A stretch of 64,000 bases of DNA, from positions 195,487 through 259,486 of the forward strand of contig JBLWXV010000001.1 in the NCBI GenBank assembly GCA_048267245.1, given 5' to 3'. Below the pieces are notes generated by a model. It was not told where the DNA came from, did no database searches, and worked only from the letters and a program-made list of their open reading frames with translations. Within the stretch, counting starts at the first letter, position 1, and each line of letters begins with the position of its first letter. Positions 122 through 20,582 of the stretch are shown here, piece by piece. The position numbers and the translations under genes are program-made. This DNA comes from Bacteriovoracaceae bacterium. GTDB taxonomy: Bacteria; Bdellovibrionota; Bacteriovoracia; Bacteriovoracales; Bacteriovoracaceae.

Positions 122-1273
122 TTATTCAAAAACCTTCTCACCATGATCTGTGACATCTAAAGTGGCTAGCTCAGCTTTCATATCAGTTCTTGTTAACTTC
201 TCTATCAATTTTAAGAGTAACCAGGTCATGAGTAGTGAATAAATTATCACGACCGCACTAGACACTAAATTTGCCCATAGCGCCCCCTTCGAAGCGATTA
301 CTCCAGTGATGATCGCACCTACTAGACCTGAAAGACCGTGACTAACAAAGACGTCAACTGCATCATCGACCTTTAGAATGTGATGAAAAATGCGCACACA
401 ATAGTAGATAAATGGACCGCTCAGAAGGCCAATGACCATTGCACCACCTGGAGAGATAACTCCTGCGGCTGGAGTGATCGCAACCAAAGCGCTGATCATG
501 CTTAGTGCTAGATTGCTTAGTGTGACTCTATGTGGAGTGTGCATAAATTCAACGATTGCCCCAGAGAAAATTGCACAAACACCACTTATCCAAGTCACTT
601 GAATTGCCTTTATAGATACATCAGACCATTCATAAGCAGATCCACTATTAAAGCCAAGCCATCCAATAAATATTAACCCCATTCCCAAGAAAATCATTCG
701 CTGATCAAGCCTTGGACGAAAGTTAAAGTAGTCGCTCCTTCTTCCACATACAATGGCCAGTACCAGCGCAGAGAAGCCAGCAGAGATATGAACGACAATC
801 CCTCCAGCAAAATCAATTGCACCAAGCCTTGCAAAGACACCACCTGGATTCCACACCCAGTGGGCCACTGGAAGATAGACTAGTATTGGCCAGAGAATGG
901 AGATGGCCAAAGCCACTTTCAACCTCAATCTCTCGAGGGCCGAACCGATAAAAATATACGTGGCGATAGCGCAAAAGAAAGCCTGAAAGAGAGAGAAAAC
1001 CTCAGGAGAGAGTGTGTTTACGAAGTAGATATTTCCCGAGGCAGGCACCCCGATTAGACCTCTCCAACTTTGTCCAAGTACGAGTTGCTCCCCAACAATC
1101 AACCACACGACAAAGCTACTCGCCAGTATTACCCAACTCTGTACTAAGGGGGAGAGGGCATATTGCTTGCGAACCGATCCTGAATATATGAGTGCCATTC
1201 CAAAGAAGAGAGCCGCTAGCAAAATAAAGCAAAACAGAACAAATAAGTTATTAAGCATAAGTCTTCCTAACAC
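122..1273 (-). CDS. amt: ammonium transporter (Amt/MEP family)
   Basis: 383-aa polytopic protein. It carries the Amt signature AIDFAGGIVVHISAGFSALVLAIVCGRR plus the C-terminal HGLSGLVGAIITG segment. Confidence 0.88.
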   Translation of the reverse strand: MLGRLMLNNLFVLFCFILLAALFFGMALIYSGSVRKQYALSPLVQSWVILASSFVVWLIVGEQLVLGQSWRGLIGVPASGNIYFVNTLSPEVFSLFQAFFCAIATYIFIGSALERLRLKVALAISILWPILVYLPVAHWVWNPGGVFARLGAIDFAGGIVVHISAGFSALVLAIVCGRRSDYFNFRPRLDQRMIFLGMGLIFIGWLGFNSGSAYEWSDVSIKAIQVTWISGVCAIFSGAIVEFMHTPHRVTLSNLALSMISALVAITPAAGVISPGGAMVIGLLSGPFIYYCVRIFHHILKVDDAVDVFVSHGLSGLVGAIITGVIASKGALWANLVSSAVVIIYSLLMTWLLLKLIEKLTRTDMKAELATLDVTDHGEKVFE

Positions 1274-1350
1274 TCTGTGATTTTATGATTGGTCTCAATA
1301 ATATTATAATGATACTTTAAGCTGTATATTTCAACGAATAGGCTCCTTTT

Positions 1351-3210
1351 ATGCATGGATTTTACGCTTATGCGCCTCGCGAGAGCGCTCAGCAAACAGA
1401 GCATCCATGGGACTTTGAAGACCCGTATTTTAAAGTTAACTTTGAAGGGGCACAGAATTGGCTATTTTCAGATTATCTTGTGCTAATTCAAGGCCATCAC
1501 CTACAAGAGCTCAGCACACTAAGTCCTCTCTCACTCGGTGAGCAGCAGGTTAGGTTGCTTACAGAGCAAATTCTTCAACAAGGAGCGAGTTCACTTCGTG
1601 CCTTTGATGGCGATCTCCTTGTCCTCATTTATAACTTAAAGCAACATGAACTCACGATCGCCAATAATCGCACCCAAGCCCACAAGCTCTATTACTCGGC
1701 GCTAGATTCATCCTTTCTCTTTTCAGATCACATGTCTCACTTCAAGGAGATGAATCTGCCAGTTCAGATTAATCTTGGAAGTGTACTTGGCTTTATGAGC
1801 AACGGGTTTACGATGGCCGATCAAACCCAAATGAATGGTGTCAAAAAATTGCTCCCTGCTTTTGTGGTTAAGGTTACTCCATCAGGTCCAAATTTTAGCG
1901 AGTACTGGTCTGAAGACTTTCACTTCAAGAAAAGTTCTCTGGGCAATATCGATCAGGCCATCGATCTCTATGAGAATCTTTATCAAAAGGGTGTCGAAAG
2001 CTTTATACAAGGCCACGAAACCAAGGAATTGGGAACACTTTTAAGTGGCGGCCATGATACATCATTCTGTCTCATTCAATCTTCCAAAGTCTTTCCCAAA
2101 CCTCTCCACACCTTCACATGTACTTTTCCAAACTGGGTCTTCAACGAAGAGGACTATGCTGGTCATCTCTCTCGGCGCTTTAATGCTAAATTTCATCCAG
2201 TTCCATTTGAATCTCATCACCTCGATCAAGTCATTGGACTCATTCACGATTGCCAAGAGCCCGTAGTTGGCAGCTGCTTGCCACTTTATATTCTTGGCAA
2301 GCACGCAAAGAATCATGTTGATACGTTATTTGGTGGTGATGGGGGAGATACACTCTGGGGTGAGTATTATCCGGTTCAAGAATATCACCGCTGGGTAAAA
2401 AACCTTCCGCTGGGTGCAAGAAAGCTCCTCCATAGTATTGCAACGGGACTTAGAGACCTGACGGATTGGGAGCGCTTCTGGGAGCTCTCTCATGTCAGTT
2501 CTCTTTTTACCTCTAATGATTATTACGATGACTTCATGAGAAAGCTTTGTACCTATCGCCACTTTCCAGACGATCTACAGGCTCGCCTTTTCACTGAAGA
2601 CACTCTCAGACACGAGATTCCAAGAAGCGCACTCGAGATTCCATTTAATAAAGAGAATTTTTCCCGCTCTCTCATAGAAGGAAAGCTCTATAATGCCTTC
2701 TTCACATACCAAAGCTTTAGTCAGTACCGAACCTTAGAGGCTTCTGGGTTGAATATTTTCTTTCCCACACTTTCTAAGCCTGTGATGGATTTCATCTGCT
2801 CTCTTCCTTGGAAGTGGGTCAATGGTGGCACTACCTTTCATCGCCTCACCAACAATAAGGTCATTAACAGACGCTTTCATAAAGTTGCCCTTGCTCGTTA
2901 TCTCTACCAAGATGAAATTTACAATCGCAGTTTCGATATGCCCTGGCACACCATCTTGGTACCGAGAGTTCACGTCCTAGAAAAGCTACAAGCTGCTCTT
3001 ATTAAGCGTGGCTGGTTCAATGCTGATGAATTGCGCGCCCTCTTTAGAGAGTTTCAATCTCAGGGTGTTAAAGATTGGGAGCTACTAGAGCTCAAGCATC
3101 ACGGCTATCGCATCTACACGTTATTGGTTCTAGAAGTTTGGACGCGACTCTATATCGATGGCCTAAAAGGCTTTGATGAGAAAACAATGTTAGAGGATTT
3201 TTTAAGCTAG
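1351..3210 (+). CDS. asparagine synthase (AsnB) family protein lacking the N-terminal Cys nucleophile
   Basis: 619 aa. The PP-loop LLSGGHDTS matches the SGGxDS class. The N-terminal amidotransferase-like segment NNRTQAHKLYY resembles RDRxGxKPLYY. Residue 2 is His (MHGF), not the catalytic Cys (MCG). Confidence 0.8.
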   Translation: MHGFYAYAPRESAQQTEHPWDFEDPYFKVNFEGAQNWLFSDYLVLIQGHHLQELSTLSPLSLGEQQVRLLTEQILQQGASSLRAFDGDLLVLIYNLKQHELTIANNRTQAHKLYYSALDSSFLFSDHMSHFKEMNLPVQINLGSVLGFMSNGFTMADQTQMNGVKKLLPAFVVKVTPSGPNFSEYWSEDFHFKKSSLGNIDQAIDLYENLYQKGVESFIQGHETKELGTLLSGGHDTSFCLIQSSKVFPKPLHTFTCTFPNWVFNEEDYAGHLSRRFNAKFHPVPFESHHLDQVIGLIHDCQEPVVGSCLPLYILGKHAKNHVDTLFGGDGGDTLWGEYYPVQEYHRWVKNLPLGARKLLHSIATGLRDLTDWERFWELSHVSSLFTSNDYYDDFMRKLCTYRHFPDDLQARLFTEDTLRHEIPRSALEIPFNKENFSRSLIEGKLYNAFFTYQSFSQYRTLEASGLNIFFPTLSKPVMDFICSLPWKWVNGGTTFHRLTNNKVINRRFHKVALARYLYQDEIYNRSFDMPWHTILVPRVHVLEKLQAALIKRGWFNADELRALFREFQSQGVKDWELLELKHHGYRIYTLLVLEVWTRLYIDGLKGFDEKTMLEDFLS

Positions 3211-3228
3211 GGCTTTTAAGAAGAAAAG

Positions 3229-3305
3229 TGGCGCAACCGGCAGGATTCGAACCTGCGACCACTTGATTCGTAGTCAAGTACTCTATCCAACTGAGCTACG
3301 GCTGC
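3229..3305 (-). tRNA. tRNA-Arg (anticodon ACG), CCA encoded
   Basis: The reverse complement is GCAGCCGTAGCTCAGTTGGATAGAGTACTTGACTACGAATCAAGTGGTCGCAGGTTCGAATCCTGCCGGTTGCGCCA. It folds as a cloverleaf with acceptor GCAGCCG/CGGTTGC and anticodon loop CTACGAA. It closely resembles the E. coli Arg-ACG tRNA. Confidence 0.95.
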
Positions 3306-3326
3306 ATTAACTTTTCAAGTTCTGGT

Positions 3327-3355
3327 TTTTTAAGCCTTGCGACTGACTTTGTCAA
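3327..3355 (-). promoter_or_regulatory. putative sigma70-type promoter for tRNA-Arg
   Basis: The minus strand reads TTGACA, then 17 nt, then TAAAAA, about 21 nt upstream of the tRNA 5' end. This is a pattern match only. Confidence 0.35.
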
Positions 3356-3884
3356 TCACTCAGGAAAGTTTTCTCTTTGGCTAACGGCCCAACCCCCTAA
3401 AATCACAATATTTTGCTCAATGCCAAACTCGCTGTGCTATGATCTCTTCATTATGGTTCAATAAAGCCCGCCCTTTTCTCTAATTTCCCATTTTTTATTT
3501 ATTCCTTTGTCCTAGGAGACATCGCCATGAACACAGCAAGCTGGGTGTGCTTTTTCGTCAATATTTCTCTCTTCCCTATGGGAGCTTGCTGTGAAATTTA
3601 CATACATTATTACGTTCCTCCTCTCCTGGAGCCTCTATACCAATGATCGCCTCTCGCTAAGAAGAAACTCTTCAAGCACTCGCTCGGCCCACACCGAGAG
3701 AGTCTGGGAGGAGTCCCAACTTAGGATCAGGAGACGCTCAAGGCTAAGAAGGTCATCTAAGCACAAGAGGAGGCCAAAGGACCTATATAAGAATCCTAGG
3801 CACCAGAACTCTATGCCTAGGTCTCATCGCTATTCTAATCAACGTTCTCTTAGAAGGATGTATCGCAATGGATGACATCTTGAG

Positions 3885-4019
<135 letters not shown>

Positions 4020-4022
<3 letters not shown>

Positions 4023-4409
4023 GATCAAGAAGCGCAAAAGCGTGCTCAAGCTAGAACTGTCATCGTTAAGGCCGTCTTTCCAGGAACCACAAATCACTAT
4101 CAGACCCTGTTTGGAGGCACGACTCTACAGTGGATGGATGAAGTCGCCTTCATTACAGCAACGAGGTATGGCCGAAGTAAGTTCGTTACTGTCTCAAGCG
4201 ACAGAATCGATTTCAAAGAGCCCATCCCCGCTGGTCACTTGGTCGAACTGATTGGAGAAGTGGTTAAAGTTGGCCGCTCGAGCCTAGTTGTTGAAGTCAC
4301 CATCTATGTTGAAGAAATGTATTCAACTCAGAGAAAGCTCGCCGTTAGTGGCCACTTCACCTTGGTCTGCGTGGGTGAAGATCGAAAACCTACGGCCATA
4401 AACCATTGA
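4020..4409 (+). CDS. acyl-CoA thioesterase, hotdog fold (YciA/4HBT-like)
   Basis: 129 aa. TNHYQTLFGGTTLQWMDEVAFITA ... VTVSSDRIDFKEPIPAGHLVELIGEVVKVGRSSLVVEV is the typical hotdog thioesterase pattern. Confidence 0.85.
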
Positions 4410-4535: not shown

Positions 4536-5801
4536 ATGAAACGCTACCTTCTTGCACTCTCTACACTTATCTCTATTCAGTCGGCCCTCGCGACTCCCAT
4601 GCATATCGGCTCAGGGGATGTCTGTAGAGTGAAAGCACTCAATAAGATCAAGGGCAACTCTGCCTGCGTCTGTGAAGTCATGAAAAAGGAGGAATGGAAT
4701 AAGAATGAGTACGCCTTTTACAAAATTGGTTGCGGCAAGTGGCTCAACTCACAATCCTGTGATCAAAAAATTATCGTAGATACTAAAGACAATATAGAAG
4801 GCTTTCTCTCTTCAATCCCAAACCTCTCACATGTAAAGGTAGGCTATGTTGGACACTGGGCTTCAGCAGAGGGAACAGTAGAGTATTTAAAAGATCGAAT
4901 TATTCCAATTGCAAACAATTATGATGTCCCAGTCTTCTATGACAATACGGCCTGCCAAGGGGCGAGCAATCCACTCTTAATTAGAAATTTTATCAACTCA
5001 CAACCTGAGCACTTACAGAATAAAATTATAGTGAAGGCCAATCAAAATATTTCAGTGGGTGAGTGGGACTCCATTCTCAAGCCAATCCTCACATCAAACA
5101 CAGAAATCACCATGTGTTCAAAAGGACTAGAGATTCCTAACTGCAGTGATTTCAATAGAAGAAATTGTTCTATTTCTATAAATGGAGGCGATACAAGCGG
5201 ATGCATCGACAAGAACAATCAGTTCAAAGTCTATAAATGCACTGACGTTAAGGAAAATAGAAGTGGTCGTTTTGAGCTTGGTAAGTGGAGAGAAGTTGAT
5301 ATGCGCTCAAGAGGCTCTCAAATCATTGAGACTACGATTAGTGATATTAATCCTACAGACTTCGCTTACGTCACTGGTACTAAGACAATAACAAACAAGG
5401 AACTCTTAGAAGAATATGGATACGAGAACGACTCTTTAGAGATAACCGATAGCAAACTTCTTATGATTGATTATCAAACTTACCACAACCAAGAAGCTAT
5501 GGCAGTGCAAGAGAAATTAAGAGAGATGTTTGGAAGATTTAGTTATATTAGTGATCGTCCAGAGCACTTAAGTGTAAGCCTCTATAAAGCTCAAAAATCA
5601 CCACTCACCTTGGAAGACGCTCCCGTCTATATTCTTATCGATCAGAACTCAAATATCCCAATGAGAGTCAGTCGAGATAGAAGTAAGCTTGAGTTTTTTC
5701 AAAAATCTAAAAACCCGATTATGAACTACTATCACATGTATGCGGATGAGCTTGAAACAGCAATCCCAGTAAGGTTTATCGAGAGCTTCCTAAATCGCTA
5801 A
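4536..5801 (+). CDS. secreted Cys-rich hypothetical protein
   Basis: I chose the internal ATG at 4536, preceded by AAAGGA. It gives the signal peptide MKRYLLALSTLISIQSALA. About 13 Cys are scattered through the mature part. No motif is recognisable. Confidence 0.7.
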   Translation: MKRYLLALSTLISIQSALATPMHIGSGDVCRVKALNKIKGNSACVCEVMKKEEWNKNEYAFYKIGCGKWLNSQSCDQKIIVDTKDNIEGFLSSIPNLSHVKVGYVGHWASAEGTVEYLKDRIIPIANNYDVPVFYDNTACQGASNPLLIRNFINSQPEHLQNKIIVKANQNISVGEWDSILKPILTSNTEITMCSKGLEIPNCSDFNRRNCSISINGGDTSGCIDKNNQFKVYKCTDVKENRSGRFELGKWREVDMRSRGSQIIETTISDINPTDFAYVTGTKTITNKELLEEYGYENDSLEITDSKLLMIDYQTYHNQEAMAVQEKLREMFGRFSYISDRPEHLSVSLYKAQKSPLTLEDAPVYILIDQNSNIPMRVSRDRSKLEFFQKSKNPIMNYYHMYADELETAIPVRFIESFLNR

Positions 5802-6426
5802 TTAATTGAGCTGGCCTATTATACTTTGATAGTAGGCCATGAAACGCTCTTCCCATTGAAACCGGTTCATCCTTGGCCATAAGAGCTCTGAGATTTATCT
5901 TTAATTCTTTGCGCACCTGATCTTCATCATCTCGCTTTATCTCATAGAGCTTAAACAAGTTTTCAAGTGGTTCCCCGCGCCCTCTTGCAATTGATGTCAT
6001 TAGGTTGGCTCGATTGGCGGCGACAAATTTAATCGTTTCACGCTCTAGAAAGCTTGTCTTCTTAGCGCTTGATGTTAGTTCAATCAGGTAGCTATTTGGG
6101 CTATACTCAATCATCTTTCCCGTGAGGGCATCGGTCCCCCAAGATAGCCAACTCGTAAGATTGAAGATAGCTACCTTATTGAGCGTCTTGTGTATCCTCA
6201 CTTCCTTTGTCTCATGGCCATCTTTCATCACTTTCAAAGTAATATTTGCGAAAGTATCTCTTTTAAAAGATTTTTTAAAAGGAGTTACGCCGAGCAATTC
6301 ACTTCCCTTATAGACCTTCGCGCCTGCAGGTATTGAGGTGAAACTTATCTCATCTGCACTTGGGCTAAAGAGCGTGCCACACGATGATAAAATTATTGCC
6401 GACAAAAGAACTAACACGTAGTTCAT
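5776..6426 (-). CDS. PEGA-domain lipoprotein
   Basis: The lipobox is MNYVLVLLSAIILSSC. The PEGA-like motif is SIPAGAKVYKGSELLGVTPFK. Confidence 0.72.
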   Translation of the reverse strand: MNYVLVLLSAIILSSCGTLFSPSADEISFTSIPAGAKVYKGSELLGVTPFKKSFKRDTFANITLKVMKDGHETKEVRIHKTLNKVAIFNLTSWLSWGTDALTGKMIEYSPNSYLIELTSSAKKTSFLERETIKFVAANRANLMTSIARGRGEPLENLFKLYEIKRDDEDQVRKELKINLRALMAKDEPVSMGRAFHGLLSKYNRPAQLISDLGSSR

Positions 6427-6492
6427 ATAGACTCCTTAATTCTCATTTGAACTATAGCTTAGTTGGACTCAACTAGATTTTCTAGAGCGAAT

Positions 6493-8082
6493 TTAGAAGG
6501 GAGGAGATTTATCGATTACATCGCGGATATAATCTAAATGCTCAAATTCGTCTGCACTGCGTCCCGTACAGAGGTTGACGTCTCTCCAACCTTGATCGCA
6601 GAGAGATCTAGCAAGCTCCTCACCCTGCACTCCATTTCCAAGATCGGAGTCGATATAGAATATTGTCTCTTTGCTCATAGCTTCGAGTGAATCCTTCAAC
6701 TCACTCCAACTCTCAAAGGTGGTCAGCTGTACTCCAACTTCACTGGCCCTAAGTTTCCAATTGAGCCTAACCAATTCGTCATTATCAAGTAAAACGAATT
6801 CTCTATCTCTTAAAATAGGAATGAATAAAATGGCCCTCGTTCCAACACCAAGAGTTGATTCATACCTTAGGCCTCCACTCCATTTCTGAGCTTCTCTCAT
6901 GGCAGCTTTTACCGCAATTCCATTGCCACCGCTCTTGCCCATACTTATTTCTTCTAACCCAATTTTCTGCACCAGCTCCTCACTCATTCCAATGCCTTCG
7001 TCCTCGACGATGATGAGAATATTCTGATCACGTAGTTCCGTAGCGATAGTGATCTGAGACTCTGCCTCTGAAGCCTCAATCGCATTGTTAATTAGATTTG
7101 AAATTATTCTTCTAAACTGCGGGCCATTAACGCGAACCCTTATGTCAGTGTGAGTACTCTCAACATTGAGTTTCAGCTTGTAGTTTGGAACTTCGGCCTT
7201 TTTGTGATCAACAATTGTCTTTAATTCCTCAGCAACCAAGATGTTCTCGCGACGAATTGCTCGATTCTCTCCAAGTAAATCATCGGCAATCTCTCTAATT
7301 CTCTCGACAGAGTCCTTTGCCAGTTGCTCTGAGCCTCCTCCTAAAAAACTCTCAAGAGCGGCTAGGGGAGAACGGATATCGTGAGCAACTTGCTTGGCTA
7401 CCTGTGCAATTTTATCACTGATTTTTAAATCGATATTTTCTTGATTCTTTATTGCAAGGTTATTTTTGAGTTTCTGAAGTGCTTCTTCAAGAGGTCTCAG
7501 CTCCCTTATCGGAGTCTTCACTGACCCAAGAGAATTTAGATCAGAGAGTTTTGAAATTTCGAGAGAAACTTCACCGACTTTGTGCGAGAGTTTTTTTGAT
7601 ATTAAGAAAATAATGAGCATCAGCAGAAGTGCCGATATAACTAGGCTCGTAATCAACGGGACGATAAAGTTTCTTATCGTAACGCTATTTCTCTGATCCC
7701 AATTGAAGGCAAGCGTTAGTCTTTGTTCAAAAATCTCAACTTCTTTGTGACTAAATTGTGAAGAGCAGCGATCGTCATCCATTTTTGGAAGGACATCAAC
7801 TCCATCCTTACAAACACCTAGACCAACTAGACCAAACTTCTCACCTTGCTTTAGGACGCCCCCACGAGAGTTCACTATATCTCCATAGAGTGCTTGGTCC
7901 TTAAAGACGCCTACTAACAACTCCTCTACGGCATTACGATAAAACTCATTCTTCTTCTGACTTTCCGTTTGTAGGTAATGATAGGACGTTATCGCGAGGG
8001 GAATTTGCATCAAGAAAAGCAAGAGAAGGCCAAAGGAAATCCCCTGGCCCAAGAGTGATTTATTCAAAGTGAATTTTGGCAT
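6493..8082 (-). CDS. hybrid sensor histidine kinase (two TM helices, extracytoplasmic loop, HisKA-HATPase, C-terminal receiver)
   Basis: The H-box is VAHDIRSPLAAL, the N-box is ISNLINNAIEAS, and G1 is EDEGIGM. The receiver-like tail has VLLDND, FYIDSDL and DKSPPF. Two hydrophobic helices flank a loop of about 110 aa that contains two Cys. Confidence 0.88.
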   Translation of the reverse strand: MPKFTLNKSLLGQGISFGLLLLFLMQIPLAITSYHYLQTESQKKNEFYRNAVEELLVGVFKDQALYGDIVNSRGGVLKQGEKFGLVGLGVCKDGVDVLPKMDDDRCSSQFSHKEVEIFEQRLTLAFNWDQRNSVTIRNFIVPLITSLVISALLLMLIIFLISKKLSHKVGEVSLEISKLSDLNSLGSVKTPIRELRPLEEALQKLKNNLAIKNQENIDLKISDKIAQVAKQVAHDIRSPLAALESFLGGGSEQLAKDSVERIREIADDLLGENRAIRRENILVAEELKTIVDHKKAEVPNYKLKLNVESTHTDIRVRVNGPQFRRIISNLINNAIEASEAESQITIATELRDQNILIIVEDEGIGMSEELVQKIGLEEISMGKSGGNGIAVKAAMREAQKWSGGLRYESTLGVGTRAILFIPILRDREFVLLDNDELVRLNWKLRASEVGVQLTTFESWSELKDSLEAMSKETIFYIDSDLGNGVQGEELARSLCDQGWRDVNLCTGRSADEFEHLDYIRDVIDKSPPF

Positions 8083-9532
8083 AATTCACTGTCTCGTCTA
8101 ATGGATCAATATTCTTAAAACTCATTCCCTTGTGGCCAAGAACTAAGCTCGAGTAGTGAATAAGGGGAAGGTAGCCACCAGAAAGACCAACATTCTTAGT
8201 CAGTTCACGCAGATCTTTCACTGATTTGGCTTTATCTGTCTGTTTTAAGATTTCTTTATATCTTTTAAACTGATCAGGCGTCTTATAAACCATTCCCATC
8301 TCTTCGCTAAATACCAGCGCTAGCCATGTGGCCGGATCGGGATCGGCCACCCCAAAGCTAAAGAGAGAGTAATCATAGACATCAGACTTTTCAAAAACTT
8401 TCACAAATTCTACAAGCGAGGGGAGAATTTCCCAGGATATTTTAAACCCCAATTTTGTTGCAATCGCATCCCACTTATTCATCACATATGAGTTGACAGA
8501 ATTTTTATTGGTTACGATTTTAAAGGTTTTCCCCTTCAGCTTGGCTAGATCAACATGTGGATAGTTAATCTCTTCAAATAGCGGATAGCCTAATGGCTGG
8601 AGCGAACGAGCTGGTTTTGAGTCTAAGCTGAGGTCATTTGGAAGATTCTCCGACCAAGCCCTTCCAAGCAAAAGGATGTTTTCACGGTGAGAATCTATCT
8701 TCTCGCCAACAAGAGGCCTTAAAAGAGAGACGCGATCCACACCCCTCGTCCAGTAGGGAGTATCATTGAGCTTAAAGAGCTCAAGCATTTCTGGTGAAAC
8801 AATAGAGTTCTCACGGTGGATATTTGCCCAGGTCTTTCGTTCAATAAAGTCTTTAATGTCGTAATCAATGTTTTTTAGACGAATAAGAATTTTATCGGCG
8901 GCACCCTTGGGGGCCATAAAGTCATGAGTGTTGCGAACAAGGCTCAAAAGATCATCACTAATACTCTCAACTTTGTAAGGACCATTGGTAAGTGTGTTCG
9001 ATTTAACAACCCCATCTTCACTCCAATCGTTAGGATGTGTGATCGCTAAGAAAGCTGAACCCATGCGCGTGAAAAACTCTTTACTTGGCTGCCGATTAAC
9101 CATTGTGATTGCAAAGTGCTTTTCATCAACGATAGTCATCGAAGAGACTTCAATAATCTTCTTTATTGTCTCCCCAAATGTACTCTTCTGAGCTATTGCC
9201 CTTTTGATATTAGCAATTAGTTGCTTCGAATTTACATTTGAACCATCTGACCACTTAGCCTTTGCATCAATTTCAAAAGTATAAGCTCCACTCTCAGAAG
9301 AGAAGGTCCACTTGGAAATTATTCCAGGCTTGGGGTTTCGACTCTCATCGTAGTCAAACCACGTCCTATAAAGGCAGAGATTTAAATCATAATCATCCAT
9401 TGCTTTAAAGGTGAGTGGATCGTGAGGAAGAACCGGTCTTCCGTAGACTTTAATCTCACTAGCAATTGATGTTGATAGAGTCATTAATACCCAAAATAAA
9501 ATGGAGAAGAGCTTCTTACTTTTCACCAGCAA
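8060..9532 (-). CDS. periplasmic solute-binding protein, family 5 (oligopeptide/dipeptide/nickel type)
   Basis: The signal peptide ends ...TSIA-SE. KWSDGSNVNSKQLIANIKRAI resembles the SBP_bac_5 WSDG motif. The size (490 aa) fits. The start is TTG or GTG. It overlaps the HK start by 23 nt. Confidence 0.78.
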   Translation of the reverse strand: MLVKSKKLFSILFWVLMTLSTSIASEIKVYGRPVLPHDPLTFKAMDDYDLNLCLYRTWFDYDESRNPKPGIISKWTFSSESGAYTFEIDAKAKWSDGSNVNSKQLIANIKRAIAQKSTFGETIKKIIEVSSMTIVDEKHFAITMVNRQPSKEFFTRMGSAFLAITHPNDWSEDGVVKSNTLTNGPYKVESISDDLLSLVRNTHDFMAPKGAADKILIRLKNIDYDIKDFIERKTWANIHRENSIVSPEMLELFKLNDTPYWTRGVDRVSLLRPLVGEKIDSHRENILLLGRAWSENLPNDLSLDSKPARSLQPLGYPLFEEINYPHVDLAKLKGKTFKIVTNKNSVNSYVMNKWDAIATKLGFKISWEILPSLVEFVKVFEKSDVYDYSLFSFGVADPDPATWLALVFSEEMGMVYKTPDQFKRYKEILKQTDKAKSVKDLRELTKNVGLSGGYLPLIHYSSLVLGHKGMSFKNIDPLDETVNYAKIHFE

Positions 9533-9671
9533 CTAGACAAGTAGAAGTTCCATTGCCCACCCGGGCCGTCTCACCAGTGCTTGCTTGCATCTTCTTAGTT
9601 TGAAATTTATTTCCCCATACTGGAGTAAGAACGAGGGCAATCACAAACATAATCGCACTTTGAATCTTCAT
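9516..9671 (-). CDS. small ORF (51 aa) absent from the ORF track: predicted secreted peptide, candidate YcaO substrate
   Basis: Hand translation gives MKIQSAIMFVIALVLTPVWGNKFQTKKMQASTGETARVGNGTSTCLVAGEK. The ATG lies 27 nt after the YcaO stop and is preceded by GGGAAG. Its stop TAA (9518-9516) overlaps the TTG/GTG start region of the SBP gene. Confidence 0.45.
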   Translation of the reverse strand: MKIQSAIMFVIALVLTPVWGNKFQTKKMQASTGETARVGNGTSTCLVAGEK

Positions 9672-9698
9672 ATCTTTCTTCCCGTTTAACCCTTGTCA

Positions 9699-10757
9699 TT
9701 AAGGTATCGGATGTATGTCAGTAGCTCGATTTATAGTCAAGTTTGCGCCAAAATAATTTTTCTGTACTGTAATATCCAAATCACTAAATCGCCCCAAAGT
9801 TATTGGAATAAGATGATCTGAGTGCAAGCAGACGGTTTTTACAACACCATTTTCTCGGTAGATCTCCTCTATTTTTGGTGTCAAAAGGTCACCAGTTAAG
9901 CAATCTTTCTCACTTTCTATCCATTCGGGAAAGGCTTCCAGATAGAGCCAGTAGTTGCGATGATCAACGAGCCTCTTGAACCCGTGGTTTTGAATTCTCT
10001 CTATGGCCCGATCTTTTGTGATCCCTTCATGCCCAAAGTAATAATTGATAATTGCTTCAAGCAGAGACTTTTCACTATCTCGACTTTCACCCTTTCCACA
10101 CGAAAGACCTACTACAAAACCTCTTTCTTCCCTTTGAATTATAAAGCAGGCCGTCGTTACTTTATGTCCCAAGAACGTCTTATAAAATCGAATTTCAAGT
10201 CCATCCCTCTCAAGCGTCCCTAGCACTTGCTTGTATTTAGATAGCTCTGGATAAATCCTCTCAAATGATGTTGAACTGTACCAATGTCTGAGAAACGAAT
10301 CTCTTTCATAGAGCTCCGAGAGTGCTGCATGATTTGCTTGCATAAAGTCTAAGCCAGAAGCTATTCCGTTGGTGCTATAGAGATTGTGCTTCTTAGAGTT
10401 TCTAACAAAGGATTCTCTTTCAAAAAACTCCATGGCCGCTAAGAAGTAGGCCTGATCTTGATCAAGTGACATTCCAAGACCAGAAATTTCAACTCCGTAC
10501 TCTGTTTCTTCTTTCGTTAATTGGAAGAGTTTCAAATCTTCCAAGCCCTCAATTGGAAGCTTCAGCGCTTCGTAGCGAGCACCACTTTCTATCTCGCGAT
10601 GAACCGCAAGTTTTAAATAGCTCTTTTTTATTTTAAGAATAATTTTCTCTATGAATGAATGCATATTCTCACCATAAACCCAACGCCAAAAATAATCGTC
10701 AATTTCTAGGAAGTGCCCCCTACTATTGAGTTTTGTTAAGAGAGTGTAAAAAAGCAC
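9699..10757 (-). CDS. YcaO-domain protein (ATP-dependent peptide backbone-modifying enzyme family)
   Basis: 352 aa. QAYFLAAMEFFERESF and STNGIASGLDFMQANHAALSELYERDSF correspond to the YcaO A..E..ER and SNG.A.G ... E..ERD motifs. Confidence 0.78.
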   Translation of the reverse strand: MLFYTLLTKLNSRGHFLEIDDYFWRWVYGENMHSFIEKIILKIKKSYLKLAVHREIESGARYEALKLPIEGLEDLKLFQLTKEETEYGVEISGLGMSLDQDQAYFLAAMEFFERESFVRNSKKHNLYSTNGIASGLDFMQANHAALSELYERDSFLRHWYSSTSFERIYPELSKYKQVLGTLERDGLEIRFYKTFLGHKVTTACFIIQREERGFVVGLSCGKGESRDSEKSLLEAIINYYFGHEGITKDRAIERIQNHGFKRLVDHRNYWLYLEAFPEWIESEKDCLTGDLLTPKIEEIYRENGVVKTVCLHSDHLIPITLGRFSDLDITVQKNYFGANLTINRATDIHPIP

Positions 10758-10888
10758 TATCTTTTACAGTATAAGTTAGTTCAGTGACGGGAACAAACCT
10801 CCATTGTAGCGCCAATTTCATCGAAGGTTTCAAATAATCATGGATCATTAGATAATGAGCATATGATCACTCACAAAAGCAGGACGAT

Positions 10889-11848
10889 TTGCGAGTATTG
10901 AAGTTTGTCCTATTATTCATCTTTTTAAGTGCTAGCGAGAGTCTCCTCGCGAATACAATTTTTCACACCGTGAGAGAAGGGGAGACCCTCGGCTCGATAT
11001 TAGAGAACCATGAACTTAAGCCCCTCTGGGGAGACAAGGGCTGGGTGAAGAAGGCCATCGCTCTCAACCCCAGTCTCATTGAAAGTAGCGGCGCTCTTTT
11101 AATTCCCGGGCAAATACTTACGTTTACGCAAGATGATCCAAACCCTTCTTTGGCAGGACCAATAAGAGAAGTATCTGCAATTGAAACTGTCACGCGAGAA
11201 AGTGAAGCAACTCTTAACATAGCGCCCATCTTAGAAACTTCTGTCACCACGCTCGAGGTAATTGATAAGACAACGCGCTCTAAAGCAAGTCTCTATTCTG
11301 GTCTAAACTACGGTGCAGGTATTCGCTTCTCATTAGTTACTACAGATTCTCGATTTTCTACAGGTATTTCGACCAAGAAGATTTCCTTCAAAGACGCCTT
11401 TAGCAAGAGACTCAAAGATAATGATCAGTTTTTTTCGAGAATCTTTTTTTCATATGAACGAAAGCTCAACTCACGACTTGTACTTTCTTTTGATACCAAT
11501 TATGTACAGGTCCCGCACCTGCATGCCGAATCGACCCAAGTTATTGCAGTTAAATCACTGTGGGTTCCAACTATCGGACTTTCCTCAAAATTTAATCTCC
11601 TGAAATATTCAAACTCAGATATCTACGCAAAAGCAAAAGTGTCCTATTTGGGAGAATCTACTAGCTCTTCTGACTCACTCGAAAGTGGATACAGCTATGG
11701 TTTTGGCCCTGGCTTTAAATACTTCTTTAAGAATTCAAATGCCTTAAGCACAGAGGTCTTCTATCAAAAGTACAATCAAGACTCCGTCCTAACCAATAGA
11801 GAATTAACTGAAGCATCAATGGCCATAAATTATGAATTTAATTTTTAG
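10889..11848 (+). CDS. LysM-domain outer-membrane (beta-barrel-like) protein
   Basis: It has a TTG start and a signal peptide. The LysM-like segment is HTVREGETLGSILENH...LIPGQILTF. The C-terminal half has alternating hydrophobic residues and ends ...INYEFNF, with a terminal Phe as in OMPs. Confidence 0.65.
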   Translation: MRVLKFVLLFIFLSASESLLANTIFHTVREGETLGSILENHELKPLWGDKGWVKKAIALNPSLIESSGALLIPGQILTFTQDDPNPSLAGPIREVSAIETVTRESEATLNIAPILETSVTTLEVIDKTTRSKASLYSGLNYGAGIRFSLVTTDSRFSTGISTKKISFKDAFSKRLKDNDQFFSRIFFSYERKLNSRLVLSFDTNYVQVPHLHAESTQVIAVKSLWVPTIGLSSKFNLLKYSNSDIYAKAKVSYLGESTSSSDSLESGYSYGFGPGFKYFFKNSNALSTEVFYQKYNQDSVLTNRELTEASMAINYEFNF

Positions 11849-13028: not shown

Positions 13029-13046
13029 GTATTCACGGATTTGAAA

Positions 13047-13245
13047 TTCAAAAAGGCCACTGGGCTTTTTGGACGACGCTTGTTTTGAATCAACGGGATT
13101 TTGCGGAAAAGTTTTTCTTTGAAGAAGATACAAGTGGCGGAGACGGAGTTCAAAAAGGCCACTGGGCTTTTTGGACGACGCTTGTTTTGAATCAATGGGA
13201 TTTCGCGGGAAAGGCTTTCTTTGAAGAAGATACAAGTGGCGGAGA
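13047..13245. repeat. tandem direct duplication (2 x 97 bp, period 102 bp) ending in the 3' end of tRNA-Ser
   Basis: Copies at 13047-13143 and 13149-13245 differ at about 5 positions by hand alignment. Both end in TGGCGGAGA, which in copy 2 is the real 3' end of tRNA-Ser(GCT). Each copy contains the hairpin AAAAAGGCCACTGGGCTTTTT. Confidence 0.9.
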
Positions 13246-13325
13246 AGGCGAGATTTGAACTCGCGGTACCCAGAGGGTACGACACCTTAGCAAGGTGCTG
13301 GATTCGGCCACTCTCCCACTTCTCC
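13237..13325 (-). tRNA. tRNA-Ser (anticodon GCT), class II, CCA encoded
   Basis: The reverse complement is GGAGAAGTGGGAGAGTGGCCGAATCCAGCACCTTGCTAAGGTGTCGTACCCTCTGGGTACCGCGAGTTCAAATCTCGCCTTCTCCGCCA. It has a long variable arm and the anticodon loop TTGCTAA. Confidence 0.93.
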
Positions 13326-13341: not shown

Positions 13342-13429
13342 TGGCGGAGGACACAGGATTCGAACCTGCGGACCCGTTAAGGTCAACGGTTTTCAAAACC
13401 GCCGCTTTCGACCGCTCAGCCAATCCTCC
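13342..13429 (-). tRNA. tRNA-Ser (anticodon TGA), class II, CCA encoded
   Basis: The reverse complement is GGAGGATTGGCTGAGCGGTCGAAAGCGGCGGTTTTGAAAACCGTTGACCTTAACGGGTCCGCAGGTTCGAATCCTGTGTCCTCCGCCA. The anticodon loop is TTTGAAA. Confidence 0.93.
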
Positions 13430-16816: not shown

Positions 16817-17866
16817 TTATGCGAGTTTAGGTCTTCTCAGGTCTTTGTTGAGACCTACCAAAATCATGAAGGTTGAAACGAGAATTGCCACAATGAAAAT
16901 AATCGGGGCAATTTTCCAGATCAATTCAGTATGTTTTTGCTCATATACATTAATCTGCGCGAGAACCAGTGAACCCAAGCTTCCGGGGAGGAATAGGAAT
17001 TGGTAGAGAAAACCAATGATAGCAATACGAGAGCCAATTTCGGCTCGGTTTCTATCTTCTTGGAGAATGAGTGACAAAATAAGCTGACCAATAATCTCAA
17101 CAAAGAAGAGCGTCAAGAGATAGACCTTCACATCCACCTGCTCCCCCGACCACATGGGAAGTAAGACGAGAGATCTCATAAGAGCACAAAGAAGTGAGAT
17201 CAATTCGCGCTTTTCACTTCGCACCAGGCTCCAAGCTGTGAAGAGGAGGGCCATACCGACATAAGACCAGAGTCCAAAGTTGAGCATGGTTGGGTTCACA
17301 TAACTCGTAGCTTGTCCCATTACTTCTGACAATTTAAGGGGAAGTAGGAAGGCAACGATACTCAACTTAAATAGGGTCTTACCTTCGATCAGGCTTCCCT
17401 TTTTATACTCATGCTCAATAAGAAAGAGATGATGCCACAAGATCATCATCATCATCGGACAGGCGAGACTTATAAGTGACGAGCGCTCTATCAAATTAAA
17501 CTGAGATGTTATTAAAGTTGCCCCCAACCCAAGAGGTAGAACCATATCGAGTGATTTTCTATTGGGACCTGGGCGAGCAATAGTGAGTGCGAGGTAATAG
17601 CTTAAAAGCTCAAGCTCCAAAGGCATCTCAGCTAGGGCCCAAATTGAAATAAAGGTAACCATAAATGGCACCTCTTCTCTCTTGCGTGTCAAAAGACATA
17701 GGCTGGCCACCAACAGATAGGGGATGAGCATATAGTTCTTTGAGCAATAAAAGATCAAGGGCGCAATTGCTACAAGCATCGCGAAAACCTCTAGCTTCTT
17801 CACACGCATAAGAACGTAGGAGCAAAAAGAAAAAATGACTACTAGGAGTGATGTTTCATAAGCCAT
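16817..17866 (-). CDS. orphan polytopic membrane protein 7 of the nuoN-downstream array
   Basis: 349 aa, mostly hydrophobic helices, with no recognisable motif. It overlaps the preceding gene by 25 nt. Confidence 0.6.
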   Translation of the reverse strand: MAYETSLLVVIFSFCSYVLMRVKKLEVFAMLVAIAPLIFYCSKNYMLIPYLLVASLCLLTRKREEVPFMVTFISIWALAEMPLELELLSYYLALTIARPGPNRKSLDMVLPLGLGATLITSQFNLIERSSLISLACPMMMMILWHHLFLIEHEYKKGSLIEGKTLFKLSIVAFLLPLKLSEVMGQATSYVNPTMLNFGLWSYVGMALLFTAWSLVRSEKRELISLLCALMRSLVLLPMWSGEQVDVKVYLLTLFFVEIIGQLILSLILQEDRNRAEIGSRIAIIGFLYQFLFLPGSLGSLVLAQINVYEQKHTELIWKIAPIIFIVAILVSTFMILVGLNKDLRRPKLA

Positions 17867-18684
17867 GCTTGAACTTTACTCCTGCTAAAAAATTTAACTG
17901 TTAAAATTGAAAAGTAGAGAAGGGCCATCAAGGGATAGAGCTTTCCAATGCTCACAATGCCGATGACCGGAAGTAATTCCTCTTTTGACTTTAATGAAAA
18001 TGCACTTAGAACGACGAGGGCAAATGCTGTAATAAAGAGATAAACGCTTCCCTTAACTAAAGATATGAAAATTACTAGTGCACAAAGAGCTCTCAGTAAA
18101 CTTATACGCAACATACTTAAAAGTGAAATAACTGTAATCACCCATACGCTGGTATCTCCAAAGTTTTTAAAACTAATTATATTGCTCATATAAATAGCAA
18201 ATATTCCAAGAAACACCGTTTTATCACGTCCTGAGAAGAGAGCAACAAGAGCGATTGCAATTGAGATGGTGTATCTCAAGACTATTGGTGCCGAGCCAAG
18301 AGCGAGTTCAACTCCAAGGCTGTAATTAAGTGACTCAAGAACGCAACAAAGTAATAGTAAACCAATAGACCATAATGCCTCAGTGCGCTCAAAGAGAAAC
18401 TTGGAAAAAATAATCCCCGCCAGTGATAGGTTTATTCCAATAACGGGAGTGAGCATGGCAAAGAGATATGAAAGAGCGAGGACTACTTTGTCATTTCGAT
18501 CTTTAAGTACATGAGAACTCATCAAGACAAGAATCGAAATAGCAACTTCAGCATCGACTGACAGTGGTCGAGATTTAAATAGCCCAAACCAGCTGACTTT
18601 TAGGCAAATATAAACAACGACAGCAATAATCACAGCGATATTATCAAACAACCAATTTTTAAGGTTTTGTGGAGTCAACTTCAT
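17842..18684 (-). CDS. orphan polytopic membrane protein 6
   Basis: 280 aa and hydrophobic throughout. An ATGA start/stop overlap joins it to the preceding gene. The local string INLSLAGIIFSKFLF weakly recalls the LSLAGIPP.GF.SKF motif of antiporter-like Nuo subunits. Confidence 0.6.
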   Translation of the reverse strand: MKLTPQNLKNWLFDNIAVIIAVVVYICLKVSWFGLFKSRPLSVDAEVAISILVLMSSHVLKDRNDKVVLALSYLFAMLTPVIGINLSLAGIIFSKFLFERTEALWSIGLLLLCCVLESLNYSLGVELALGSAPIVLRYTISIAIALVALFSGRDKTVFLGIFAIYMSNIISFKNFGDTSVWVITVISLLSMLRISLLRALCALVIFISLVKGSVYLFITAFALVVLSAFSLKSKEELLPVIGIVSIGKLYPLMALLYFSILTVKFFSRSKVQAWLMKHHS

Positions 18685-19943
18685 ACATGCATCTCCTTTA
18701 AAAGAAGGACAATTGAAGTGATGATGACCAGAAAGAGAAATATTAAATAAGGAAATGATGTTTGACGACTAAGCCAACTTACATCGACTAATTCTTTCCA
18801 ATGTTTCTGTGACTCTGCTCTTTGTGCAGGTTCGATATTACTTTCTAGCCGTGCGGCCATTTTTCCATTTTTAAGAAACGAAGCGAGCAGTTCGCTGTGA
18901 ATGGCAATTAGCATTGGATTCTTTAGCCACAGCCTCATTGCTCCATAAATCATCCCAACAAAGCTAAGCACGATAGCACAAACTACGAATGATGTGGCCA
19001 GTGCCAAATCTCTATAATTTAGAACAATTAATATATTTCCAATAACCGATATACCAAAGAGGCTTGAGAACCCAAGAAATAGATCGCGCTCGTTTAATTG
19101 ACCAGAGTCTACCTGCTCATCAGATATAACTAGACCCTCGGCCAGTATTGAAAAAAGAGCAAATGTTAAAGACCAGGTAATTGCCGCCAGAGGCAAGTAA
19201 AAGCCGAGTCTCATCTCATATACATTTCCCATCAGAAGAATTGGTCCAAAAGTGAGGGCGAAGATTGATGCGAAGAAGACTTTAGGGCTTTGATAGAACA
19301 GACTTCTAAGTTTTAGAGGTGAAGGAAGTAACTCAGTCCTAGAAACCATACACTCTTGAAAGAGCAACAGCGATAAAACAACGGCCATTAATGTCAAAGA
19401 GAGGGGGCTACTCTCACTTAAGAGAAGCATCATTGAGAGACAGCTGCTCATAACTTTAATAGATGACTTAAGATTATGTGCCCAAAAAAGTAGCCTCAGA
19501 GAATAGATAATTGCAACATATTCTCCAACATACTGAATGCCTGGACCACTGATAGTGCCCTTGGAAAAATAAAGAAAACCCAGGGAAAGCGAGAAGTTTA
19601 AATGACCTTCTCTATCTGGTTCAGAGAGATATTCCTCGAGAACACTGATAACAAGAGCAAAGTATGCAAAAGGTCTTAATTGCGGTGGCAGCAGCATCGT
19701 AGCGCCCAAAAGAAGCAAGGAAAGAGGCTTAATGTTTTTTGACAACACTATTGCTGCAATAATTAATATTATCGAGTGAGAGATAATTTCGATAAATTCC
19801 GCCGCAAAAGGAAGTCCCAAAAGAGCAAGAGCTCTATAATCTTTTGTTCGCACTGACAAAGCGAGAAAGAGTGCGGCCACAATAAGGTAACCTAGGATTA
19901 CAGCCTTATCCATCTGTGCCAGACTACTCATCATCATGACCAA
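18681..19943 (-). CDS. orphan polytopic membrane protein 5
   Basis: 420 aa with many hydrophobic helices. It overlaps the upstream gene by 8-20 nt, depending on which of the MVMMM Met codons is used. Confidence 0.6.
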   Translation of the reverse strand: MVMMMSSLAQMDKAVILGYLIVAALFLALSVRTKDYRALALLGLPFAAEFIEIISHSIILIIAAIVLSKNIKPLSLLLLGATMLLPPQLRPFAYFALVISVLEEYLSEPDREGHLNFSLSLGFLYFSKGTISGPGIQYVGEYVAIIYSLRLLFWAHNLKSSIKVMSSCLSMMLLLSESSPLSLTLMAVVLSLLLFQECMVSRTELLPSPLKLRSLFYQSPKVFFASIFALTFGPILLMGNVYEMRLGFYLPLAAITWSLTFALFSILAEGLVISDEQVDSGQLNERDLFLGFSSLFGISVIGNILIVLNYRDLALATSFVVCAIVLSFVGMIYGAMRLWLKNPMLIAIHSELLASFLKNGKMAARLESNIEPAQRAESQKHWKELVDVSWLSRQTSFPYLIFLFLVIITSIVLLLKEMHV

Positions 19944-20169
19944 AGTCCTTAAAATGAGTCACAACGTAAGCGATTAACCAGATTAGGTAGATGAAAATGA
20001 CTTCGTATCCACTGACACTTGAATCTGGTCGATAAAAATAAGTTCTCATTAAAAGAAATAGAGATGAGAGGCAAAGAGCTATCGCCATGACTCTATTTTG
20101 AAGATCATTTGACTTATACCACTTCACTAATGCTATTAAAGCAGCTCCAAGCAAGATGAATGTATTCAT
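19924..20169 (-). CDS. orphan small membrane protein 4
   Basis: 81 aa with about 2-3 hydrophobic helices. An ATGA overlap joins it to the preceding gene. Confidence 0.5.
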   Translation of the reverse strand: MNTFILLGAALIALVKWYKSNDLQNRVMAIALCLSSLFLLMRTYFYRPDSSVSGYEVIFIYLIWLIAYVVTHFKDFGHDDE

Positions 20170-20582
20170 TTGCGCCTCAGCTTTGGAAGAATTCCGAGAA
20201 TTGCCCCTAGGAAAACGACACTAATGAGCCACAAGTCTTCTGTAGTTGATTTTTGATTGGTCTGGCTCACAACTGCTCTAAGCGTCGAGCTCGAATTTAA
20301 TACGTAGAATCCAGAAACGATAAGAATCAATGAAGTATAGAGGATAAAGTCGGTTGAGCGTGCACTTGGCAAGCGAGTTAAATCCTTCTTCTTAGTTCCA
20401 AGAACAATAATGGCCGGAACGATAAAAAAAGCAATTAAGTAGACGAGGTTAAGCTCAATTCCCATCTGGCTTGGTACTAAGCATAGTAACTGTAGCATCA
20501 AGAGCAAAACTAGGTTTTGACCAGGCTTTTCTATGGCAATAAACATTGAACCAATGATTGTTAGCAAGGCAAGTTCAATCAA
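20166..20582 (-). CDS. orphan membrane protein 3
   Basis: The track ORF is 20166..20660. I prefer the TTG at 20582-20580, which forms a TTGA start/stop overlap with the upstream gene stop (20581-20579). This gives about 138 aa of hydrophobic helices. Confidence 0.5.
   Translation of the reverse strand: MIELALLTIIGSMFIAIEKPGQNLVLLLMLQLLCLVPSQMGIELNLVYLIAFFIVPAIIVLGTKKKDLTRLPSARSTDFILYTSLILIVSGFYVLNSSSTLRAVVSQTNQKSTTEDLWLISVVFLGAILGILPKLRRK

Follow-up and report, generated by a model that had tools for sequence, protein, structure and literature searches.

YcaO enzymes are known for antibiotics, for toxins and for the modification of a few large proteins. In the clusters for thiazole/oxazole-modified microcins and linear azol(in)e-containing peptides (TOMM/LAP; McbD, LynD/TruD, PhzD and the stand-alone YcaOs of bottromycin) a small precursor gene lies next to the YcaO gene. 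The Agr and ComQXPA systems (AgrD/AgrB/AgrC/AgrA and ComX/ComQ/ComP/ComA) unite precursor, modifying enzyme and sensing histidine kinase (HK) in one operon. Modified-peptide sensing is, to our knowledge, well known in Gram-positive bacteria and barely documented in Gram-negative ones. Another principle is realized in LuxP/LuxQ, TorT/TorS, XylFII/LytS, HptA/HptS and ChvE/VirA, where a substrate-binding protein (SBP) stimulates the kinase; such kinases have been described for no more than a few small-molecule ligands, and the respective SBP genes typically adjoin signalling and not transporter genes (PMC8050422). Here we analyze a locus from a Bacteriovoracaceae bacterium in which these elements come together. 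It lies within a stretch of 64,000 nucleotides (positions 195,487 to 259,486 of contig JBLWXV010000001.1, GenBank assembly GCA_048267245.1), hereafter the window, and comprises ycaO, a 51-codon open reading frame (ORF) for a candidate precursor peptide, an SBP gene and an HK gene. We are inclined to think that ycaO, precursor, SBP and hybrid HK make up a self-contained four-gene signalling module. The components and the logic, that is, an operon-encoded modified peptide with its kinase and SBP-assisted kinases, have precedents; the combination and the use of general secretion do not.

The preliminary description of this DNA, which was made from the letters and the ORFs, had assigned a 352-residue ORF product to the YcaO enzymes on account of the motifs AMEFFERESF and STNGIASG...ELYERDSF. 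Both motifs are present, and profile and fold place the protein in the family. PF02624 scores 57 bits (cut-off 25.7) with a coverage of only profile positions 110-234 of 325. The SagD model TIGR03604 yields 44 bits, far under its cut-off of 219, and neither the YcaO nor the small ORF nor the SBP reaches the cut-off of any NCBIfam model. The length given at first needs correction. The homologues have 310-331 residues and the alignment begins at M32; the start is therefore probably the ATG at 10664 (321 aa) and not the GTG at 10757 (352 aa). By sequence the nearest solved YcaO is MJ1094 of M. jannaschii (E = 2e-4 with the family profile). An AlphaFold2 (AF2) model built with eight homologues in the alignment has a pLDDT of 84.5 and a pTM of 0.86. 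When this model is compared with the PDB using Foldseek, the top 41 matches are all YcaO enzymes, including those of M. kandleri, M. jannaschii and E. coli as well as LynD, McbD, TruD and MusD; the query-normalised TM-scores are 0.39-0.59 (mostly 0.5-0.6) and the alignments span about 255-430 columns. The family alignment shows no variation in the motifs ExxER, TNG and ExxERD (E110, E113, R114, N130, G131, E148, E151, R152 and D153). We take them to be the Mg/ATP ligands, going by the published YcaO structures and by the alignment with MJ1094 and not by a residue-by-residue comparison on coordinates. Judged by profile and predicted fold, the ORF product is a compact, divergent stand-alone YcaO in which the acidic ATP/Mg motifs are kept.

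A word-indexed protein search returned 8 YcaO relatives only. Scans of genomes and metagenomes, together with the contigs encoding the relatives, yielded nine further loci of the kind found in the window (L001-L007, L016 and L017), which we call type I. Their YcaOs are 30-71% identical to that of the window. Where the source is named it is a metagenome-assembled genome (MAG) of Bdellovibrionota, Oligoflexia, Bdellovibrio or Bacteriovorax; other loci come from metagenomes. As far as the contigs reach, ycaO, small ORF, SBP_bac_5 gene and HK gene are linked in all ten type I loci, so that the neighbours named in the preliminary description recur beside the YcaO homologues of the relatives. The kinases are homologous over the N-terminal sensor part too. 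The flanks are unrelated between loci and encode, for example, Fic, MutL, SNase, acetyl-CoA synthetase or a helix-turn-helix regulator. The pairwise identities of YcaO, SBP and HK correlate with r = 0.94-0.97, which indicates that the four genes travel and diverge as a co-inherited unit. The MAG 'Bdellovibrionota bacterium FG-2' contains two type I copies of the cassette (L002 and L004).

In all ten type I loci the small ORF has ycaO on one side and the SBP gene on the other. In the window it is preceded at a distance of 4 nt by the purine-rich ribosome binding site GGGAAGAAAG and begins with a signal peptide (codons 1-20), after which come a linker containing an FK motif, the core and a short tail. 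The N-termini of the type I small ORFs have a lysine-rich n-region, a hydrophobic stretch of 12-15 residues and small residues at positions -3 and -1. By these features they are Sec-type signal peptides and too short for a membrane anchor. The mature part has a conserved core resembling G-x-G-T-S-T-C, which reads ..RVGNGTSTC.. in the window and ..RDGTSTC.., ..GDGTATC.., ..GEGTATC.., ..GDGGATC.. or ..GGSSTC.. in other type I loci. Its Thr-Cys pair is invariant in the ten type I precursors and contributes the sole Cys of the mature part. The tail after the core is short or, in three loci (L005-L007), helical and about 45 residues long. Compared with L001, ten codons of the small ORF carry synonymous-only changes, and within the last 11 codons there is one change, which is synonymous. 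In 770,000 six-frame residues a strict regular expression for the core motif has no match outside these small ORFs. A chance ORF in the 166-nt spacer, which we considered, is ruled out by the conserved position, the signal peptide, the core and the coding-type substitutions. Because position and core are conserved, substitutions are of the coding type and the motif is confined to these ORFs, the 51-codon ORF is in our reading of the alignments a real, constrained gene and the obvious candidate for the YcaO substrate. Thus the secreted-peptide ORF of the preliminary description is borne out as a conserved gene with a signal peptide and a Gly/Ser/Thr/Cys core. A 51-residue product with a GNGTSTC core next to ycaO is also what one expects of a TOMM/LAP precursor.

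The YcaO of the window belongs to a larger group. An exhaustive profile search against 1.84 billion representatives gave 48 clusters of compact YcaOs at E<=1e-30 and 789 at E<=1e-10. Among the best 150 listed clusters nearly all proteins have 300-340 residues, and the 58 that were read end in HP-x-x. To judge by these matches, the compact YcaO type is a sizeable unannotated family and not a one-off. In at least 12 loci with more distant YcaOs, which form a larger sister group that we call type II (Table 1), the order is permuted to small ORF, SBP_bac_5, YcaO, HK. Here the small ORF has 64-109 residues and often a lipoprotein-like signal (..TTGC followed by G; also ..ATSC), and it is kept in every type II locus whose contig extends upstream of the SBP gene. 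Type II C-terminal cores read, for example, ..ERCRARC.., ..TRCGIKC.. or ..SDNGTICG. The small ORFs of both types share an N-terminal hydrophobic peak, a positive n-region and a conserved C-terminal core of Gly/Ser/Thr/Cys. A search from the kinase side leads to the same cassettes: not counting the window HK itself and its L001 orthologue, the nearest kinases that match beyond the kinase core (P0191 and P0188) sit in type II cassettes. The precursors of these two loci have ..SDG[TS]KTE.. in common, and one is without Cys. One Oligoflexia contig (L012) carries two tandem type II cassettes at 1202-3968 and 5006-7778.

Members of the same YcaO clade are further found in classical azole clusters for peptides that are ribosomally synthesized and modified post-translationally (RiPPs), which we call type III (the P0140 contig and L025). 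Both encode a nitroreductase/SagB-like dehydrogenase, JmjC and fatty-acid-hydroxylase (FA_hydroxylase) enzymes and a glycosyltransferase. In L025 (4636-6171), where alone these two were read, there are also a PqqD-like protein of 93 residues and a 77-residue Cys-rich precursor (..GQVCYCGMYSSDPYNCSSGYCDNRC) without signal peptide; the small ORF of P0140 has 104 residues. The PqqD-like protein and the nitroreductase-type dehydrogenase are confined to type III and are not found in type I and type II loci. Since these azole-RiPP clusters hold the same YcaO clade, the analogy speaks for a cyclodehydration of small Cys/Ser/Thr peptides by the clade.

It could be argued that the small ORF is not the substrate at all. 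In that case YcaO would modify the SBP, the kinase or a housekeeping protein, the SBP and the kinase would sense exogenous peptides from prey or cell walls, and the small protein would be an accessory modulator. YcaOs acting on large proteins do exist, and the YcaO of McrA thioamidation is the closest solved relative both by sequence and by fold. E. coli YcaO acts on the housekeeping S12/RimO. Moreover, there is no RiPP recognition element (RRE) for leader recognition, and in one locus (L027) the small ORF is without Cys. But the small ORF is kept beside SBP and YcaO in all type I loci and, as far as the contigs reach upstream of the SBP gene, in all type II loci, always with its core at a fixed distance from the C-terminus; the type III relatives have an adjacent typical Cys-rich precursor, and TfuA, which is needed for protein thioamidation, is not in the window. 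We regard this explanation as very improbable.

The chemistry most consistent with these data is azoline formation. The YcaOs of most clade members end in PHPIP or PHPxx, and a PxPxP C-terminus is the canonical motif of azoline-forming YcaOs (PMC12338566). Thioamide chemistry ranks below azoline formation as the window lacks TfuA, and macroamidine chemistry also ranks below it as the signal peptide would block the free N-terminus that is needed. With the TOMM/LAP systems the cassette shares the YcaO fold, the acidic ATP/Mg motifs and the adjacent small precursor gene with its Gly/Ser/Thr/Cys core; the C-terminus is proline-rich, but in the window protein it matches PxPxP only in part. Sister members of the same YcaO clade are accompanied by PqqD-like and SagB-like proteins. 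It differs from them in the very compact (about 320 aa) and distant enzyme (best PDB E 2e-4) and in lacking an E1/ThiF/RRE partner, a dehydrogenase (FMN-dependent, SagB/McbC-type), a leader protease and an ATP-binding cassette (ABC) exporter. Further, where those systems have a cytoplasmic leader its precursor carries a signal peptide of the Sec or lipoprotein kind, and the partners are an SBP and a kinase.

The third protein had been described as a family-5 binding protein with a signal peptide. This is correct: PF00496 (SBP_bac_5, a cluster of peptide/nickel/opine binders) scores 62.8 bits against a cut-off of 32.4, and the signal peptide read from the sequence is MLVKSKKLFSILFWVLMTLSTSIA, ahead of SE. 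The best relatives with sequences in the PDB are OppA, the pheromone binder PrgZ and DppE. In each type I locus the next gene after the small ORF encodes an orthologue (33-73% identical). There is no ABC permease or ATPase near the SBP gene in the window or in the related loci; the sole ABC_tran match of the window is UvrA, and BPD_transp is not matched. A role as part of an ABC importer was rejected, no permease or ATPase genes having been found. The SBP is, by its sequence and its neighbours, an orphan periplasmic binding protein. An SBP gene next to a kinase gene and without cognate ABC genes is the arrangement expected of SBP-stimulated sensors. PrgZ, which binds cCF10, and YejA, which imports the YcaO-made phazolicin, are likewise SBP_bac_5 receptors for a signalling or a YcaO-modified peptide, and YejA is a precedent for the handling of a YcaO-made azole peptide by an OppA-type SBP (PMC10128002). 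Those proteins hand their peptide to an ABC permease for a cytoplasmic target, whereas the SBP described here has no permease and its neighbour is a membrane kinase.

The import of phazolicin by YejA also points to another explanation. The product might be a bioactive RiPP, that is, a metal-binding or antimicrobial azoline peptide, and the SBP and the kinase would serve producer re-capture, autoinduction or the regulation of immunity; the peptide would then be no signal in its own right. Sensing on the producer side has precedents in the nisin autoinduction by NisK and in the binding of metallophores or azole peptides by SBP_bac_5 proteins. The same YcaO clade does serve classical azole-RiPP clusters, and the SBP scores equally against NikA, Opp5A, CntA and the Opp binders. 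However, a dehydrogenase, tailoring enzymes, immunity genes, an exporter and a leader protease are all missing from the loci of types I and II. Whereas weapons have hypervariable cores, this short core shows strong conservation between distant genomes, and the cassette always consists of exactly precursor, SBP, YcaO and kinase. Such a product is in our view improbable.

The fourth protein had been called a hybrid HK with an extracytoplasmic loop. The kinase is well supported. HATPase_c scores 56 bits and HisKA weakly, H234 lies in the H-box QVAHDIRSPL, which is invariant in the alignment of homologues, and WalK, HK853 and ShkA are among the Foldseek matches. In the AF2 model two transmembrane helices flank an alpha/beta periplasmic domain of about 100 residues (residues ~41-135). 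No Pfam family matches this sensor domain; its homologues have an invariant cysteine pair (C91/C106) and an invariant YGDxVNxRG motif. The receiver part of the claim needs qualification. Pfam does not find a receiver in the window protein; the model has a C-terminal (beta-alpha)5 fold at 428-523 with a pLDDT above 90, and D435, D478 and K525 are invariant in 30 HK homologues. On these grounds we accept the C-terminal domain as receiver-like. It is duplicated in three HK orthologues. In L006 (14091-15527, a Bdellovibrio MAG) there is a kinase without a receiver-like domain, followed by a second SBP_bac_5 gene.

The cassette resembles LuxP/LuxQ, TorT/TorS, XylFII/LytS, HptA/HptS and ChvE/VirA (PMC8050422) in the SBP gene being translationally coupled to a (hybrid) HK gene, in the small periplasmic kinase domain and in the lack of a cognate ABC transporter. 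It differs from these systems in that its SBP is of the SBP_bac_5 family and not Peripla_BP_1/4 or SBP_bac_11, its presumed ligand is an operon-encoded modified peptide instead of a metabolite, and its sensor domain has the invariant Cys pair and no Pfam match. With Agr and ComQXPA it shares the joint occurrence of precursor, enzyme and kinase, which is seen from gene order and conservation alone. Unlike there, the enzyme is a YcaO and not the AgrB protease/cyclase or the ComQ prenyltransferase, export would use general Sec, and sensing would proceed through an SBP and not directly on a polytopic kinase. The host is a diderm, and there is no response regulator in the operon.

We suggest that the module could work in the following steps. 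In the cytoplasm the compact YcaO would activate, with ATP, a backbone amide of the conserved precursor core (...VGNGTSTC...) and close an azoline ring, most likely a thiazoline from the invariant Thr-Cys or, alternatively, a (methyl)oxazoline at Gly-Thr. The modified chain would then be carried across the inner membrane by its own Sec signal peptide, and cleavage would leave a peptide of about 31 residues. In the periplasm the orphan OppA-type SBP may capture this peptide. The loaded SBP would dock on the small periplasmic domain of the kinase, which presumably contains a disulfide, and thereby switch autophosphorylation and a phosphorelay via the receiver-like domain. The output would pass to a histidine phosphotransfer (HPt) protein or response regulator encoded elsewhere; a sigma54-type response regulator is adjacent in one type II relative only (L022). 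Of all readings of the locus, the sequence of making, Sec export and sensing that the preliminary description proposed is the best supported. Its pheromone-type, intercellular side is less certain, as Sec reaches only the periplasm and no route over the outer membrane is encoded.

Several observations weigh against this circuit. Some concern the enzyme and its substrate. The YcaOs of the window and of L001 end in IHPIP, that is, in xxPxP and thus a partial PxPxP. In the window, as in the loci of types I and II, neither an E1-like/Ocin-ThiF partner nor an RRE was found, and how YcaO would recognize a precursor without RRE or partner, the signal peptide being the sole N-terminal extension, is unexplained. 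The L027 precursor, which was found from the kinase side, lacks Cys; the target residue, and with it the mass shift of -18 Da expected for a thiazoline, is therefore uncertain, and going by these alignments Cys cannot be the universal YcaO target. The type II cores differ (RC-x3-C), and no one modification site fits all loci. Others concern the receptor. The similarity of the SBP to characterized peptide binders is weak (E ~6e-4), and in NCBIfam the metal and metallophore binders NikA, Opp5A and CntA score against it like the Opp binders. Pfam Response_reg is absent in the window HK, reaches 27.3 bits in L017 and is weak in 4 of 30 homologues; a profile search of the receiver domain against the PDB gives no significant match, and hhalign yields E = 0.076, with the register correct. 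As the preliminary description had conceded, the 64-kb window is without E1/ThiF, TfuA, dehydrogenase, exporter, HPt protein or response regulator; a protease is absent from it as well. Finally, since Sec ends in the periplasm, no locus encodes an exporter, a protease or an outer-membrane channel and the precursors of type II appear to be tethered to lipid, a pheromone that diffuses is doubtful.

These last points suit a loop that stays within one cell. In such a loop the peptide would remain in the envelope of its producer, and SBP and kinase would monitor its presence, modification, oxidation or proteolysis; it would report cytoplasmic ATP and YcaO activity or the protease and redox state of the envelope, similar to MgrB or CpxP. 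The absence of an exporter and of an outer-membrane component from all loci fits this idea, and so do the lipobox-like sequences of type II (..TTGC/..ATSC), which point to membrane tethering. A mature type I peptide of about 30 residues exceeds the size limit of general porins, and its single Cys together with the two invariant Cys of the kinase hints at redox chemistry. The comparison with MgrB-PhoQ and CpxP-CpxA holds insofar as in both cases a very small exported protein with a periplasmic Cys is tied to a sensor kinase. Those proteins are, however, unmodified and bind the kinase directly, whereas here a dedicated ATP-dependent enzyme and an SBP are obligatory partners. Why a reporter should need an ATP-dependent heterocyclase and a high-capacity peptide-type SBP is not evident, and the long helical tails in L005-L007, compared with the short ones elsewhere, suggest processing to a smaller fragment that is released. 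We consider a reporter of this kind rather unlikely, if clearly less so than the bioactive RiPP; among the alternatives to the proposed circuit it is the chief one.

Tentatively, and with more reserve than for the module as such, we put forward that Bdellovibrionota and relatives possess an unrecognized form of signalling between cells (or within the bdelloplast), in which a ribosomal peptide, heterocyclised by a partner-less YcaO and exported with a Sec or lipoprotein signal that replaces the RiPP leader, is read by an OppA-type SBP and a hybrid HK. If true, the peptide would be the first signalling peptide made by a YcaO and the circuit the first pheromone circuit of RiPP type and such design in diderms, with dozens (type I) to hundreds (type II) of sequence clusters as its representatives. 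The full-text literature that we searched, mostly without subscription journals, describes neither a YcaO in linkage with an SBP and a kinase nor RiPP precursors of this type with a Sec signal. If YcaO were hard-wired to a receptor pair, signalling would join the known roles of these enzymes, and the precursor would rely on a signal peptide of the Sec or lipoprotein kind and not on a dedicated leader, protease and exporter. With four genes and a predicted ligand of about 31 residues the cassette is a compact and biochemically tractable system. The hosts are predatory or related to predators, and the cues of their life cycle are largely unknown; the module is a candidate sensor of self, density or envelope state.

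The preliminary description had listed five co-directional minus-strand ORFs; this arrangement, the spacings and the quoted motifs all agree exactly with the ORF table (Table 1). The gap between ycaO and the small ORF is 27 nt, the end of the small ORF overlaps the TTG start of the SBP gene by 17 nt, SBP and HK genes overlap by 23 nt, and 66 nt separate the HK from the lipoprotein gene.

Table 1. Features of the cassette region (positions in the window) and related loci of the permuted gene order
Feature	Position or loci	Strand	Remarks
Upstream intergenic region	10665-10888	-	probable promoter/operator of the cassette; common to the divergent gene 10889-11848
YcaO	ORF 9699-10757; probable gene 9699-10664	-	352 aa (ORF), 321 aa (probable gene); PF02624 and fold
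Small ORF, precursor candidate	9516-9671	-	51 codons
Core motif GNGTSTC of precursor	9537-9557	-	proposed YcaO target Thr44-Cys45 and/or Gly41-Thr42; translation checked
SBP_bac_5 binding protein	8060-9532	-	490 aa, TTG start
Sensor HK	6493-8082	-	529 aa
Lipoprotein	5776-6426	-	216 aa
Type II loci	L008-L010, L012 (twice), L013, L015, L018-L020, L022-L024

The lipoprotein, which had been counted as a member of the system, is not part of the conserved core. It has the lipobox LSSC, its N-terminus is PEGA-like, and its C-terminus is a DUF3015 domain with a score of 28.1 bits, which exceeds the cut-off; the earlier PEGA label rests on a sub-threshold match (18.7 bits, cut-off 20.8). Outside the window the gene is found only in the closest relative, L001, and it is absent 3′ of the HK gene in L003, L006, L007 and L017. 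A conserved five-gene operon was rejected, as the lipoprotein is missing from all loci except L001. The PEGA/DUF3015 lipoprotein is a lineage-specific neighbour.

Upstream of the cassette, the intergenic region and its counterpart in L001 share 81% identity. Since this exceeds the 61-72% of the cassette coding genes, the comparison suggests that the region is conserved regulatory DNA. A sigma-70-like TTTACA-17-AATAGT at 10750-10722 (minus strand) is no more than a match to a pattern, of a sort for which shuffled sequences show no depletion. The same holds for the promoter and terminator scans in general, which we did not use as evidence.

Some neighbouring features deserve mention. At 1351-3210 (plus strand), 2.5 kb from the cassette, an amidotransferase of the asparagine-synthase family (619 aa) shows weak similarity to the models of the XrtA/PEP-CTERM amidotransferase and of lasso-peptide cyclases. 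As it is syntenic with the cassette in L001 only, it is probably unrelated. A cobalamin riboswitch match at 3868-4036 (plus strand) lies just over the threshold (34.2 bits, gathering score 31.5) and overlaps the start of a 4HBT thioesterase ORF (4020-4409). At 13036-13239 there is a tandem direct repeat of 102 nt with two copies of 90% identity. It directly abuts tRNA-Ser(gct) at 13237-13325 (minus strand); tRNA-Ser(tga) is found at 13342-13429 (minus strand), and tRNA-Arg at 3229-3305 (minus strand) lies on the other side of the cassette region. Downstream of a 1091-residue tetratricopeptide repeat protein, five ORFs (349, 280, 420, 164 and 267 aa; 16817-21382, minus strand) are without any Pfam match, and this run is syntenic in L001. 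The window further holds nuo genes, mfd, uvrA and a riboflavin operon. Its part from 43000 to 63300 is the neighbourhood of the replication origin, with dnaA (53509-55107), dnaN, recF, gyrB and gyrA on the minus strand and, from 55929 on, yidC, mnmE, mnmG, rsmG, parA and parB on the plus strand. The cumulative GC skew has its minimum at about 50-52 kb of the window.

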